DNA of 64,000 nucleotides from Escherichia phage OLB35: sequence record MH992122.1; one strand, 5' to 3'. The first letter of the stretch is position 1. Each line of letters starts with the position of its first letter. This document shows, piece after piece, positions 26,207 through 38,321 of this stretch. The notes under the pieces were generated by a model that was given only the letters and a program-made list of their open reading frames with translations, was not told the origin of the DNA and did no database searches. The translations under genes and the position numbers were made by a program.

Positions 26207-26509
26207 TTAGATAGATGTAGACTCTAATTTTATTTTCATGAACTCGGCAAATTGTTTGGCAGTTTTTATGCCTTGTTCATGACATTCAAATGCATCATCA
26301 CAGGGGCTATTTTTGTAATGCTTTGCCATATACTTATAGAATTTTTCAGAGTTCTCGACATTTTGAATTTCAAACAAAGTATATACGTTTTTAATCCCTG
26401 ATTCCATAAAGTTATCAAAGTATGGGTCAACATATGCAGTACCAACGATAGGAGTTGTTGCTGCAAAAAACCCAAGCATCGCCATGACAGCTATCGCTCT
26501 TAAGGCCAT
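26207..26509 (-). CDS. rI: Lysis-inhibition regulator RI (periplasmic, signal-anchored)
   Basis: MALRAIAVMAMLGFFAAT...VDPYFDNFMESGIKNVYTLFE... matches T4 RI; lies just before tk. Confidence 0.8.
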   Translation of the reverse strand: MALRAIAVMAMLGFFAATTPIVGTAYVDPYFDNFMESGIKNVYTLFEIQNVENSEKFYKYMAKHYKNSPCDDAFECHEQGIKTAKQFAEFMKIKLESTSI

Positions 26510-26761: not shown

Positions 26762-27343
26762 TTATAACAACCCTGTCAAATCATTCCAATGCTTCCGGCA
26801 TAATGACACGTATCTATCGGTATCACCAATTTCAATTTGACTGCCATCTGTAATTGGAAGTCCGTCTTCCGTGACTCTAGCTACCATTGTGGCTTTTTTA
26901 CCGCAATGACAGACACCTTTAAGTTCAACAAGCTTATCGGCAATAGCCATTAATGCTTGAGAACCTTCAAATAGATTACCTTTAAAATCTGTTCGTAGTC
27001 CGTATGCCATTACCGGCACATTGTATACGTCAACAATACGACTAAGTTGATACACCTTTTCAGTAGTTAAGAACTGAGCTTCGTCAACAAATACACAGTG
27101 AATATCCTTTTGTGCTGCAGCCCATTTATAAAATTCAAAGATATCCATGTCTTTTGTAATTATATTGGCATCCTGACGAATACCAATACGGGAGACTATT
27201 TCACCTTTTGAATCGCGAGTATCAATAGCCGGTTTAAGAACTAATACACCCATGCCACGTTCTTTATAGTTATGTGCGGCAGTAAGTAATGAAGCAGACT
27301 TACCAGCGTTCATAGCGGCATAGGTAAAAATTAAACTAGCCAT
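26762..27343 (-). CDS. tk: Thymidine kinase
   Basis: 193 aa; P-loop YAAMNAGKS and C-terminal zinc ribbon CHCGKKA...CRKHW; T4 Tk-like. Confidence 0.9.
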   Translation of the reverse strand: MASLIFTYAAMNAGKSASLLTAAHNYKERGMGVLVLKPAIDTRDSKGEIVSRIGIRQDANIITKDMDIFEFYKWAAAQKDIHCVFVDEAQFLTTEKVYQLSRIVDVYNVPVMAYGLRTDFKGNLFEGSQALMAIADKLVELKGVCHCGKKATMVARVTEDGLPITDGSQIEIGDTDRYVSLCRKHWNDLTGLL

Positions 27344-27535: not shown

Positions 27536-27753
27536 TTAGGTTCACCTTCTTTAATGAAATCCGGATAAGGATTAAATCCAGAATAAAATCCTTCACCTTT
27601 ATGATTGCTACAACCCTTGTTCGAGCAATAGCACCAATAATCAAAATCACAAGCCATTTCGTCATTGCATAGAGCAAATACTACAGGCCATTCACATTTT
27701 TCACATTTAGCACCTGTAAGAATTTTTGTTTGGCTCATAACAATGGTTCCCAA
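27532..27753 (-). CDS. Cysteine-rich small protein
   Basis: 73 aa with 9 Cys (CEKCEW...CNDEMACDFDYWCYCSNKGC). Confidence 0.45.
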   Translation of the reverse strand: MGTIVMSQTKILTGAKCEKCEWPVVFALCNDEMACDFDYWCYCSNKGCSNHKGEGFYSGFNPYPDFIKEGEPK

Positions 27754-28232
27754 TCAACAATCACAATTTCTAGTTTAGTGGAATACGTATCTAAAATCTC
27801 TTCGATGACATCCCAGTTTCCGCCACCGATACCTGCACCAATTCTTGGCATATAAATTACAGGCTTTGTTATCTTATTCTTTCCGAATTCATTTAATTCT
27901 ATTATACAATTCATTAAAGCAGGGTACTCAAAATTAGGTCCCGGCTCAAACTGTGTATAAAGATTAAAGCAATAAGCTTTATGGGTCTTAAAATATTTTT
28001 CATAAACCGAATAAGTCCCGAGTTTAGACTCGTCTCCGAATTCGGTTTGAAGTTTATCTGCTTCCAGAATTTTTGGATAAGCCTTTGCCAATTGACCTGC
28101 TACACCGGCACCCATTGTATGAAAACAATTGCACCCATGAGCAATATTATTACCTTTAGAAAACAGGGCGACAATATCGCCCTTGATATAGTTTTTAATC
28201 ACTTGCTGCAAGTCCTCTAGTATAAGAGTCAA
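27735..28232 (-). CDS. Macro-domain-like protein (putative ADP-ribose binding/processing)
   Basis: 165 aa; glycine-rich motifs MGAGVAGQLA and RIGAGIGGGNW resemble macro-domain signatures. Confidence 0.45.
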   Translation of the reverse strand: MTLILEDLQQVIKNYIKGDIVALFSKGNNIAHGCNCFHTMGAGVAGQLAKAYPKILEADKLQTEFGDESKLGTYSVYEKYFKTHKAYCFNLYTQFEPGPNFEYPALMNCIIELNEFGKNKITKPVIYMPRIGAGIGGGNWDVIEEILDTYSTKLEIVIVDWEPLL

Positions 28233-28533
28233 CTAGACGGTCCACCATAGAATTGCATGCTGCCTTATCTTTAGGTTCCGCCACCGAGCATTCTAATATT
28301 TGCCATTTTTTATGATATCGTTTAATTAAGGTAGACGCCTTGAACCTACTAGACGCCCCATCTTTTTCTCCGTCTTTATATGCGTATAACAATTTTTGTG
28401 AAAAATCTACTTTACACTCTTGACTTTTACCACAATAATCAGACGCCGTTCTGTTTGTATACTCCGTTACATCAGTATATGTAGTATTAGCAAGAGCGTT
28501 AAATGAAACCAAGCCAACTATTAAAGCCAACAT
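28195..28533 (-). CDS. Secreted/periplasmic protein with signal peptide
   Basis: MLALIVGLVSFNALA signal peptide; 4 Cys in the mature part. Confidence 0.5.
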   Translation of the reverse strand: MLALIVGLVSFNALANTTYTDVTEYTNRTASDYCGKSQECKVDFSQKLLYAYKDGEKDGASSRFKASTLIKRYHKKWQILECSVAEPKDKAACNSMVDRLVDSYTRGLAASD

Positions 28534-28538
28534 TTTGG

Positions 28539-29081
28539 TCATTCTTTTACTTCCAGTAGTTTATTTGATTTAAGGTAATTAGCCTTTTCTAGGACTTCAG
28601 AAGCATATTTACTGCCAGCACTTGTCTTCCATCCCGCATTATATGAGGATATAGCTTTTCTTATATCCCCGTTATGTATATTTAACCAATAAGAAAATTC
28701 GATATAAGCCCATCTTGTTGAATTAGACCGCTTAGATAGCATTTTCTTAATTTGGGCATCAGTCATATTATAACCAAGCTGGTTAATTCTTGCCCTCATT
28801 GTTGGTAGATAGTTTTGGAACATTCCATACGCATGGTGACCTTTCTTATCTTTAAGATTAATACCGGCAGATGATTCTTGCCATAGTATTGCGGCCATTA
28901 TGTATCCAAGTCCTTTCTTATGCATATTTTCATGCGTTTTAAATTTTCCGTCCTTAGAAAACTGTTCCCCAAACTGATAAGCATAATTCAAGTTATCGAG
29001 TTGGACATTACTAAAAGTATGCTCGGAGCTATGTGCTGATAACGAAAGAGCAAATAGACCAGCGAGTAGTGCTTTTCTCAT
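28539..29081 (-). CDS. Secreted lytic-transglycosylase-like (SLT domain) protein
   Basis: Signal peptide MRKALLAGLFALSLSAHS; WQESSAG...YGMFQ and SYNAGW resemble SLT catalytic motifs. Confidence 0.5.
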   Translation of the reverse strand: MRKALLAGLFALSLSAHSSEHTFSNVQLDNLNYAYQFGEQFSKDGKFKTHENMHKKGLGYIMAAILWQESSAGINLKDKKGHHAYGMFQNYLPTMRARINQLGYNMTDAQIKKMLSKRSNSTRWAYIEFSYWLNIHNGDIRKAISSYNAGWKTSAGSKYASEVLEKANYLKSNKLLEVKE

Positions 29082-29089
29082 GTTTACCT

Positions 29090-29548
29090 CTAGATTTTAA
29101 TCACTGCTTTAGAAGCTTTTCCTGGTAGTCGTTTACTGTTAATAATAGCCATTCTACATTGAAGAGTCTTCATTTTGAATGCCGGATTTTCGCGACAAAC
29201 TGTAAGTCCTAACCAAAGATTTCCATCAGTTATTTCTAAACGGCCTGGGCGATATTCGACACCTTCGACAAAATCTTCATCAACATCTGGACGTGCCGGC
29301 ATTGATAAAAATTCTGCAACTTCTTTAACATGATTTTTTACTTTACGAAATAATTCAAAAACGTAATTCTCATCTATTTCTCTCTGGATGGCACGATCTA
29401 AGAGATGTTGAGAATACTTGATATGAAAGCCTGGTAGTCCAAGAGACTTTGCAGCATCTTTTATACCGGCATTGATTTGACGAAACTCCGTTTCAAAGAT
29501 TCGACGGAGTTTATTGCGACGGATAAAAACTTCCGAATTGATAGTCAT
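29090..29548 (-). CDS. regB: RegB site-specific endoribonuclease
   Basis: MTINSEVFIRRNKLRRIFETEFRQIN...RLEITDGNLWLG...RLPGKASKAVIKI matches T4 RegB; the track ORF has 19 extra N-terminal codons. Confidence 0.88.
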   Translation of the reverse strand: MTINSEVFIRRNKLRRIFETEFRQINAGIKDAAKSLGLPGFHIKYSQHLLDRAIQREIDENYVFELFRKVKNHVKEVAEFLSMPARPDVDEDFVEGVEYRPGRLEITDGNLWLGLTVCRENPAFKMKTLQCRMAIINSKRLPGKASKAVIKI

Positions 29549-29628
29549 TTTTATTTCTCCTCTAGTTGACAGGTCTATAGTAACACAACTAGAGGAGAAG
29601 TAAACCACTTTTTGATAGGAATTAACTT

Positions 29629-29905
29629 TTAAACTGCTTTAGATACTTCGTCACGAACCTGGTGGAAGTTCTTGAGCTGTTCAAGGCGTTGTTCGTAATA
29701 CGCAATCTCATCTTCTTCAAGACAATCGTCAGCGTCTTCTTTCAGATATGCCTTGTACTCATTAAAGAGGGCCCATAGGCGGTTCTCAAAGTCATCAAGG
29801 CTTTGAATTTTCTTGTGCTTAGGAACAAGGCTAAAAGGATTGCTTTCAGTTATGCTTGTGACCTTTTCTTATGAGTTCCAAATACCCAGTAATAGTAGAA
29901 GCCAT
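29629..29905 (-). pseudogene. Frameshifted ORF ([14 protein letters not shown] then frame change)
   Basis: ATG at 29905 runs 19 codons to a TGA; an adjacent frame continues ...[15 protein letters not shown]...[28 protein letters not shown]; break at the T4 run 29864-29867. Confidence 0.5.
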
Positions 29906-30385: not shown

Positions 30386-30747
30386 TATAGACTCTCAGTA
30401 AAGGTACGAGCGATAACGTCGCGCTGCTGTTCCGGAGTCAGAGAGTTAAAGCGAACTGCATAACCGGATACACGGATGGTCAGCTGCGGATATTTTTCCG
30501 GATGCTTAACTGCATCTTCCAGAGTTTCACGTCGCAGAACATTAACGTTCAGGTGTTGTCCACCTTCAATTTTAACTTTAGGTTGATGTTCAATTTCAAT
30601 TTCACGGGCATTCAAACCGTAGAAAATTTCCGGGTCTACAATAGCGTCTTCTTTAAAAGTCTTAGAGGCAATAATCCGGGCTTGAGTACCGTCTTCAAAA
30701 TAAATAGTGCCTTTATGTGCACCTTCAAGAATTTGATATGCTTTCAT
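30385..30747 (-). CDS. Autonomous glycyl radical cofactor (GrcA/YfiD-like; T4 Y06I family)
   Basis: C-terminal [29 protein letters not shown] glycyl-radical motif; the last ~60 aa look like E. coli GrcA as recalled. Confidence 0.85.
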
Positions 30748-37935: not shown

Positions 37936-38321
37936 CGATTGTTTCATTTTCACGTTTAGCTAGGAGTTCATTATAACTAATCATTTGAGAAGCGTAAACA
38001 GCATAAATTCAGTTAAGGCTTTTGCATCTTATTTCCTTAACGAATTCCATAGCTTCTTCATATTCATACTTTTTAACAGCTTCGATTGTTTCATTTTCAC
38101 GTTTAGCTAGGAGTTCATTATAACTAATCATTTGAGAAGCGTAAACAACGCCGTCAATAAGAAATCCAACTAATCCAAAGGCAAATCCCATGCCAATACT
38201 CATAATAAAAATTAGAATGTTCTCACCAAGAGAAGGCCAGCATAAATTCAGTTAAGGCTTTTGCATCTTATTTCCTTAACGAATTCCATAGCTTCTTCAT
38301 ATTCATACTTTTTAACAGCTT
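37936..38321. repeat. Segmental duplication, units A-B-A-x-B (A ~65 bp, B ~83 bp)
   Basis: A at 37936-38000 and 38083-38147; B at 38001-38083 and 38239-38321, near-identical; unit A carries GTTTAC-N17-TATAAT on the minus strand. Confidence 0.8.
38009..38203 (-). CDS. Chimeric small membrane protein sharing its C-terminus with the next gene
   Basis: 64 aa; last 22 aa (VKKYEYEEAMEFVKEIRCKSLN) identical to the end of 38248-38640 because of repeat unit B. Confidence 0.4.
   Translation of the reverse strand: MSIGMGFAFGLVGFLIDGVVYASQMISYNELLAKRENETIEAVKKYEYEEAMEFVKEIRCKSLN

Follow-up and report, generated by a model that had tools for sequence, protein, structure and literature searches.

Predicted export signals in both products of the vs.1-vs gene pair of a T-even phage

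Introduction

Where does the product of the T-even phage gene vs act, and does it act together with the product of its neighbour vs.1? The question is raised by two overlapping open reading frames (ORFs), of 180 and 115 amino acids (aa), in a 64,000-nucleotide (nt) stretch of Escherichia phage OLB35 (sequence record MH992122.1), which is referred to below as the window. Papers of Neidhardt, Marchin and McClain from the 1960s-70s are said to describe the vs function as binding of the host valyl-tRNA synthetase (ValRS) and stabilisation of a temperature-sensitive ValRS in vivo, and the vs locus was reportedly defined by the modification and stabilisation of host ValRS by T4 via a phage-coded peptide of ~10 kDa (tau). 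An earlier note on this DNA, made from its letters alone, had described the two ORFs as a pair of secreted proteins, one of them with lytic-transglycosylase motifs. Here, we found that Vs.1 is very probably an exported lytic transglycosylase, that Vs is probably exported as well, and that mutants of both genes lose fitness together in published transposon data from two T-even phages.

Results

The two ORFs are orthologues of T4 vs.1 and vs

The pair is arranged as follows (all coordinates are those of the window).

28539-29081, minus strand: vs.1 orthologue, 180 aa, predicted Sec-exported single-domain family-1 (SLT/GH23) lytic transglycosylase
28195-28542, minus strand: vs orthologue, 115 aa, annotated 'valyl-tRNA synthetase modifier', predicted exported four-helix protein
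28539-28542, minus strand: ATGA overlap of 4 bases, vs.1 stop and vs start

The 180-aa protein is 81% identical over its full length to T4 Vs.1 (NP_049725), and the 115-aa protein is 67% identical to T4 Vs (NP_049724); the two ORFs are almost certainly the orthologues of these genes. The gene order regB-vs.1-vs-tk.4 is conserved, and the window matches the T4 order rI-tk-tk.1..4-vs-vs.1-regB. TH12 and AlbertHofmann (genus Mosigvirus), the complete genomes nearest to the window, are ~98% identical to it across 27700-29700, and the source genome of the pair is a Mosigvirus-like T-even phage. The earlier note had given the positions and lengths of both ORFs and the ES, GMFQ and YNAG motifs correctly, and this description of the pair stands; it had not recognised them as the known T4 genes vs.1 and vs, nor the 115-aa protein as the 'valyl-tRNA synthetase modifier'. 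Both genes were previously known, and nothing is new in their identity.

Vs.1 carries the motifs and the predicted fold of a family-1 lytic transglycosylase

The following features were located in vs.1.

28869-28877, minus strand: motif I, E69-S70-S71 (WQ-E69-S-S), with the E69 codon at 28875-28877; predicted catalytic Glu69
28815-28826, minus strand: motif II, G86-M-F-Q89; aligns with GLMQ of Slt70 and MltE
28632-28643, minus strand: motif III, Y147-N-A-G150 (A-Y-N-x-G type, preceded here by S146)
28605-28607, minus strand: Y159, candidate motif IV; invariant

In an alignment of 63 homologues, E69, S71, G86, Q89, Y147, N148, G150 and Y159 were all invariant, and these eight residues make up what we take to be the full motif set of family-1 lytic transglycosylases. 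Alignment of the Vs.1 profile with hhalign placed E69 on E505 of the Slt70 precursor (RQ-E505-S) and on E64 of MltE (I-E64-S); these alignments to single sequences are weak (E ~0.1) and were used for residue correspondence only, not for homology. Precursor E505 presumably corresponds to E478 of mature Slt70, and we take E478 and MltE E64 to be the catalytic residues. The earlier note had asked for careful alignment of the catalytic Glu, and this residue is present and unchanged in every homologue of the set.

Profile searches pointed in the same direction. Vs.1 matched phrog_600 over residues 1-178 (E=3e-66), and Pfam SLT was matched at E<=0.01 by 55 of the 63 homologues, with a best value of 1.3e-7. 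Searches with Vs.1 gave no NCBIfam or PADLOC match at E<=0.1, and Rfam gave none either. The AlphaFold2 model of Vs.1 had a mean predicted local distance difference test score (pLDDT) of 89.7 and a predicted template-modelling score (pTM) of 0.83. When this model was compared with the PDB using Foldseek, the top matches were the GH23 chitinase 3w6e, MltD 8rhi and Slt 6fcq (probability 0.99-1.00, template-modelling score 0.44-0.52), and the top 16 were all of the GH23 chitinase, MltD, Slt or LtgA type (probability 0.96-1.00). The SLT motifs that the earlier note had seen belong to a complete family-1 set on a predicted GH23-type fold. A sequence search of Vs.1 against PDB chains returned no match, and because the sequence-level PDB searches were negative, Vs.1 is a divergent member of the family. 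Taken together, these results make it very probable that Vs.1 is an exported family-1 (SLT/GH23) lytic transglycosylase; its enzymatic activity is a prediction, and sequence does not separate a true lytic transglycosylase from a hydrolase.

This prediction is not new. SLT similarity was reported for six vs.1 orthologues by Nolan et al. in 2006, citing an earlier T4 PSI-BLAST result (PMC1524935), so that it was published nearly 20 years ago, and several GenBank records already label Vs.1 'SLT domain-containing protein'. Of 50,697 phage records, 2,016 contained a Vs.1-like protein by tblastn; among these are phages of Acinetobacter and Aeromonas, Kuttervirus phages and some whose genomes measure ~87 kb. 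In the literature searched, no experimental function was found for any member of the Vs.1 family.

Both proteins carry predicted export signals

Signal peptides were called with a home-made heuristic for the n-, h- and c-regions, not with SignalP. Vs and Vs.1 both begin with a positive n-region, which is followed by an uncharged hydrophobic core (11-13 residues) and then by a small-x-small site.

29028-29081, minus strand: Vs.1 signal peptide, aa 1-18, MRKALLAGLFALSLSAHS followed by SEH; cut after residue 15, 16 or 18
28489-28542, minus strand: Vs signal peptide, aa 1-18, MTKMLALIVGLVSFNALA followed by NTTY; called by the heuristic, with the likely cleavage site between the two

The heuristic was passed by 7 of the 158 ATG-initiated ORFs of >=60 aa in the window, namely rI, vs, vs.1 and four short ORFs. 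The three-part pattern was found in 62/63 Vs.1 and 35/36 Vs homologues, and the two failures resemble truncated or mis-called starts. The N-terminal sequences of both proteins vary widely among lineages, while their properties are kept; this is the usual mark of a functional signal peptide, and because the pattern is kept across nearly all homologues, it is not a chance hydrophobic stretch. The signal-peptide-like N-termini proposed in the earlier note were therefore borne out on both proteins.

In the AlphaFold2 models, the signal peptide of Vs.1 (pLDDT ~60) is detached from the folded domain, and residues 1-16 of Vs are unstructured and of low confidence (signal-peptide pLDDT <50). Every Vs.1-like protein that we inspected has a signal peptide. 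A signal-anchor-release (SAR) tether was considered for Vs.1 and set aside, since the hydrophobic core of ~13 residues is too short for a membrane span. In the Vs family, the distant member P0164 has a lipobox, LSGC, in place of the signal-peptidase-I site, and another distant member, P0162, as well as the Vs copy of an Acinetobacter phage, have ordinary signal peptides and the same Cys pattern. Removal of the signal peptide would take Vs from a precursor of 12.8 kDa (T4 13.1) to a mature protein of ~10.9 kDa (T4 11.0). Overall, the sequence features make export of Vs probable, with only slightly less assurance than the assignment of Vs.1. The annotated function of Vs needs a cytoplasmic location, and this disagrees with the export predicted from its signal peptides, the lipobox variant and the invariant cysteines. 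Literature searches on the localisation of Vs found nothing, and the export signal is not discussed in the papers searched.

Vs is a predicted four-helix protein with two conserved cysteine pairs

Three features stand out in the mature part of Vs.

28414-28434, minus strand: C37-x5-C43 pair; brackets the helix 1/helix 2 turn
28255-28290, minus strand: C85-x10-C96 pair; brackets the helix 3/helix 4 turn
28210-28251, minus strand: S98-MVDRLVDSYTRGL-111, near-invariant C-terminal helix motif; candidate binding surface

Vs has exactly four cysteines (C37, C43, C85 and C96), as the earlier note had counted. All four are invariant among 36 homologues, and the Acinetobacter phage copy and the distant members P0164 and P0162 have them too. 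Two further stretches, an R-T-A-x-D-Y-C motif and the helix S-M-V-D-R-L-V-D-S-Y-x-R-G-L at the C-terminus, are likewise invariant or nearly so; the latter is the most conserved stretch of the family alignment. The AlphaFold2 model (pLDDT 86.7) has helices at residues 20-37, 41-64, 69-85 and 90-114. Because the two cysteine pairs bracket the helix-1/2 and helix-3/4 turns, they probably form disulfides that staple these turns, and Vs is predicted to be an oxidised periplasmic protein. N-terminally His-tagged T4 Vs was insoluble when expressed in the cytoplasm in a structural genomics study (PMC8076793), which is compatible, weakly, with a need for export and oxidation.

We then asked what is known of the Vs family from searches. 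Vs matched phrog_1256 (E=1.8e-35), and PF26829 (ValRS_modifier) is carried by P0121, a cluster representative 99% identical to the 115-aa protein; Vs itself gave no Pfam match in the copy searched, which is one without PF26829. There was no NCBIfam or PADLOC match at E<=0.1, and none in Rfam. A search of Vs against PDB chains gave no match, and the family profile reached only a non-significant SLH-domain protein (E=0.067). The four-helix fold had no informative structural match, and Foldseek against predicted viral structures returned Vs family members only. When 1.84 billion representative proteins were searched exhaustively with a Vs profile in HMMER, 8 clusters were recovered, each of them in a T4-like context, and no bacterial relatives; the two most distant clusters also lie in a regB-vs.1-vs context on T4-like contigs.

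vs.1 and vs are closely linked and probably share an early promoter

The ATGA overlap suggests translational coupling of vs.1 and vs. The junction falls within -8 to +2 nt in T4, the window, VR26, F48, IME341, Acinetobacter phage Konradin and two metagenomic contigs, and lineages in which the two genes abut or overlap include Gaprivervirus, Dhakavirus and Marfavirus. In IMG/VR, vs.1 lies directly upstream of vs in 27/27 loci. On distant contigs an extra gene is inserted after vs, and the vs.1-vs junction is retained. As a separate observation, a third protein with a signal peptide directly follows vs on a distant T4-like metagenomic contig (4724-5143, 139 aa) and in Konradin-v2 (2285-2710, 141 aa), giving a run of three exported proteins; the two are 31% identical (E=8e-16), and the window holds no homologue of them.

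29577-29605, minus strand: T4-early-type promoter match, GTTTAC-17-TACTAT, just upstream of regB (ATG 29548)

This promoter match probably drives regB, vs.1 and vs. No terminator-like match was found between the regB stop and vs.1. Upstream of vs.1 on the same strand there were only two such matches, both weak (a 5-bp stem at ~29430-29443 inside regB, and one at 30706-30723). A scan for MotA-box middle promoters gave no match from regB to vs. T4 proteomics (PMC9697503 supplement) places vs and vs.1 in the class 'early RNA, middle protein'; their products were both detected by mass spectrometry and rose over the same time points with similar kinetics. The promoter match and the T4 class agree with the placement of the pair in the early region by the earlier note. 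In the window as a whole, there are 7 matches to a stricter promoter pattern (GTTTAC-N16-18-TAnAAT), every one of them on the minus strand (11376, 17889, 18869, 32046, 37970, 38117 and 44258), as against a chance expectation of 0.3; two of them, at 37970 and 38117, share the same 30-mer and lie 147 nt from each other.

Loss of vs or vs.1 is costly in two T-even phages

Fitness values were taken from the tables of the HIDEN-SEQ preprint (doi 10.1101/2025.11.20.689424; Extended Data Tables 6 and 7), as mean transposon-insertion counts. In the T4 reference library, the counts were 103.3 for vs and 75.7 for vs.1, as against 230 for regB and 259 for tk.4. After growth in liquid LB, they were 26.6 and 22.6 (regB 179, tk.4 290), and in a second LB experiment 33.9 and 15.0 (vs.3 650). 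The lowest vs counts were obtained in minimal medium, at 5.0 for vs and 11.9 for vs.1 in M9Glc at 37 C (regB 403, tk.4 275), and at 9.9 and 9.4 in M9Glc at 30 C (regB 267, tk.4 288). In phage Bas37 grown in LB, the orthologues (genes 0224 and 0225) had counts of 23.5 for vs and 73.8 for vs.1, with flanking genes at ~325. The log2 fold change for LB versus M9 was -2.19 for vs (adjusted p 0) and -0.87 for vs.1 (p 0.0055, adjusted p 0.155).

These data show that vs and vs.1 mutants are depleted together while those of flanking genes are not, most strongly in minimal medium, and that vs.1 and vs are the only genes of the neighbourhood with a fitness cost on loss. Gross transcriptional polarity is unlikely, because insertions in regB, which lies upstream in the same transcription unit, were neutral. 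A clean vs deletion also had a defect in M9Glc, which the HIDEN-SEQ authors read as a ValRS-modifier effect; the main text of the preprint covers vs only and never vs.1, despite the parallel depletion in every table read here.

The same tables bear on the roles that the earlier note had proposed. It had suggested superinfection exclusion or lysis control by analogy with other early periplasmic proteins; such a role is not supported, since in the T4 tables for LB versus M9 and for M9Glc at 30 C insertions in sp and rI were neutral, as were those in imm in the latter table, whereas insertions in vs and vs.1 were depleted. Its other suggestion, help with DNA entry, is unlikely for a Sec-exported protein made after infection, which could hardly aid the entry of its own genome.

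Neighbouring genes

The genes around the pair are the following.

26207-26509, minus strand: rI, 1.7 kb downstream of the vs/vs.1 pair
26762-27343, minus strand: tk, followed by small tk.x ORFs
27735-28232 as listed, minus strand: tk.4, macro-domain gene, adjoining vs
29090-29608 as listed, minus strand: regB, true ATG at 29548, 152 aa, directly upstream of vs.1

The regB stop and the vs.1 start are 8 nt apart. The mechanically called regB ORF is over-extended to a GTG at 29608, and the ATG at 29548 is preceded by a GGAG Shine-Dalgarno sequence; GGAG is the motif cleaved by RegB itself. The tk.4 orthologue matches Pfam Macro (E=5.7e-6) and is 83% identical to T4 Tk.4. Its TTG start at 28232 is probably over-extended as well, since T4 tk.4 begins at the vs stop codon. 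T4 Tk.4 was named 'AdfM', an anti-DarTG2 counter-defence factor, in a 2025 preprint. The vs.3 homologue (29609-29904, minus strand) appears disrupted, and no ORF of >=40 aa with a standard start is listed there. In comparison with AlbertHofmann, there are a diverged stretch and an indel of 1 nt close to its 5' end, and close to its 3' end a TAA stands where that phage has AAA; it could be a pseudogene or the product of mosaic replacement, or the sequence could be in error.

Discussion

A predicted periplasmic module and the evidence that weighs on it

We propose the following reading of the pair, which as a whole we hold to be about as likely as not. The regB promoter probably drives early transcription of vs.1 and vs, whose translation would be coupled. 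Vs.1 would be exported through Sec and probably released as a soluble periplasmic enzyme of ~18.6 kDa, where it would cleave the bond between N-acetylmuramic acid and N-acetylglucosamine (MurNAc-GlcNAc) of peptidoglycan, with Glu69 as the single acid/base catalyst, and produce 1,6-anhydro-MurNAc ends. Vs would be exported and cleaved to a ~10.9-kDa four-helix protein with two disulfides, and could act in the periplasm with Vs.1 or on the same process, as a partner, a regulator or a targeting factor. Together, the two may remodel the host wall and so raise the phage yield, which would matter most for slow host growth in minimal medium. Contact between Vs and Vs.1, their actual localisation and their physiological role are what we infer here. 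That Vs works in the periplasm with Vs.1 as a wall-remodelling module, of most use in minimal medium, is a tentative reading, to which we give a little short of an even chance.

Several results weigh against this reading. On the side of Vs.1, the Pfam SLT score of the window protein (19.4 bits, E=7.8e-4) falls below the gathering score of 21.3, the E-values of the Foldseek matches were modest (1e-2 to 4e-1), and the family profile found only non-significant PDB sequences (a metacaspase, and EtgA at E=0.94). As for the link between the two proteins, the adjacency of vs.1 and vs is weak evidence for a functional connection, because the whole block has a generally conserved gene order. Aeromonas, Pseudotevenvirus and Kuttervirus phages have Vs.1 but no recognisable Vs, so that Vs is not an obligatory partner. 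The Vs of the Dhakavirus vB_EcoM_005 (2393-2650) is 85 aa long and has lost helix 2 and the first Cys pair to an internal deletion, but it still has its signal peptide and C-terminal motif. The joint depletion could be partly polar, since insertions in vs.1 would break translational coupling to vs. Finally, an exclusively periplasmic Vs cannot account for the cytoplasmic ValRS function that is reported for it.

This last point leads to the account of the textbooks, in which Vs is the cytoplasmic 'tau' that binds host ValRS, its N-terminus is not or only partly used for export, the adjacency to vs.1 is inherited gene order, and the minimal-medium defect reflects translation under amino-acid limitation. 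The gene was reportedly defined genetically through its in-vivo effect on a temperature-sensitive ValRS, and the ValRS-modifier annotation stands in hundreds of phage records, in PHROG and in Pfam; the HIDEN-SEQ authors read the M9Glc defect of the clean deletion in this way, in M9 at 37 C the depletion of vs exceeded that of vs.1 (log2 fold change -2.19 versus -0.87), and Vs.1 is present without Vs in several phage groups. However, a signal peptide in 35/36 homologues, a lipobox variant and four invariant cysteines are hard to fit with a cytoplasmic protein, and vs.1 mutants are depleted alongside vs mutants in five T4 conditions and in Bas37, unlike those of regB and tk.4. The size of tau, reportedly ~10 kDa, lies nearer to that of cleaved Vs (11.0 kDa in T4, 10.9 here) than to the 13.1 kDa of the precursor; this would imply that the protein had gone through the export machinery. 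We found no accessible paper that links the sequenced ORF to tau by protein sequencing. We regard this account as a serious rival, though less likely than not. The preprint still treats Vs as a ValRS modifier and calls the purpose of the modification unanswered. Both readings may also be partly true, for example if export is incomplete or if Vs associates with ValRS after lysis. The fuller form of the proposal, in which Vs is an exported, disulfide-bonded periplasmic protein that forms with Vs.1 a two-gene wall module for good yield in minimal medium, and in which the ValRS association is secondary, partial or arises once cells are broken, or the ORF is mis-assigned, is likewise conceivable rather than likely.

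Mis-assignment of the vs ORF would mean that some other small early gene between rI and e encodes the actual ValRS modifier and that this ORF has a periplasmic role only. The conflict between predicted location and annotated function invites it, small early ORFs that are uncharacterised crowd this region (tk.1-tk.3 and vs.3-vs.8), and we found no accessible evidence that ties the ORF to the tau protein. However, the assignment is decades old and may rest on marker rescue or cloning data, and mature Vs is near the reported size of the tau peptide, so that we consider this explanation very unlikely. It is also unlikely, if less remote, that Vs is a periplasmic inhibitor or immunity protein which, by a logic like that of Spackle, restrains Vs.1 or blocks the lysozyme of superinfecting phage. 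Vs is small, helical and predicted to be exported, it is encoded directly after a wall-degrading enzyme and coupled to it, its loss is harmful, and T4 is said to use the small periplasmic proteins Sp and RI in a similar way. If Vs only neutralised Vs.1, however, insertions in vs.1 should be neutral, and they were depleted about as much as those in vs; nor does the neutrality of sp, rI and imm insertions in the tables named above suit a Spackle-like role, and the search of predicted viral structures with Vs matched its own family only. The periplasmic module therefore remains the reading that we favour, with the reservations given.

Comparison with known systems

Among family-1 lytic transglycosylases, the catalytic domain of Slt70 and MltE/EmtA (PF01464, GH23) have E-S, G-x-x-Q and Y-N-x-G in the same order as Vs.1, and their catalytic Glu aligns with that of Vs.1. 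The predicted lysozyme-like helical fold of Vs.1 is alike too, with only 14-20% identity in structural alignments. Unlike the Slt70/MltE group, Vs.1 is a phage-encoded single-domain protein with an extra N-terminal helix (25-38) and without a lipobox or the superhelical domains of Slt70. The small specialised lytic transglycosylases of secretion and conjugation machines (EtgA, and also VirB1 and P19) resemble Vs.1 in size (~150-190 aa) and in combining one SLT domain with a Sec signal. EtgA was the only transglycosylase that the Vs.1 profile matched in PDB sequences, over residues 61-176 and at a non-significant E=0.94. In contrast to EtgA-type enzymes, no secretion machine is encoded near vs.1, and membership of Vs.1 in the specialised secretion transglycosylases is not supported. 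Spackle (Sp) and RI resemble Vs and Vs.1 in being early, exported, small and largely helical, and they act on wall or lysis functions; the searches made showed no sequence or fold similarity between them and Vs or Vs.1, and their transposon fitness profile in T4 differs.

The closest known counterparts are the T4 proteins themselves. T4 Vs.1 (NP_049725; P13311, Y06E_BPT4) has the same signal peptide, motifs and position between regB and vs, with no difference of substance. T4 Vs (NP_049724; P13310; PF26829; phrog_1256) has the same length, four Cys, SMVDRLVDSY-RGL motif and position, and does not differ in any sequence feature; here the features of the family predict export, whereas the annotated function is cytoplasmic. 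Two points remain of interest: Vs looks exported, and a loss of fitness is shared by mutants of vs.1 and vs, a parallel that the source paper leaves undiscussed. The export signals of Vs and its cytoplasmic annotation form a concrete contradiction that bears on the purpose of ValRS modification, and if Vs is periplasmic, the current explanation of the need for vs in minimal medium would have to change. If the two proteins do form an exported module, the 'ValRS modification' would be reopened, and T-even phages would gain a third wall-active system beside gp5 and the endolysin. Taken together, these findings on vs.1 and vs make a long-unexplained function of T4 directly testable.

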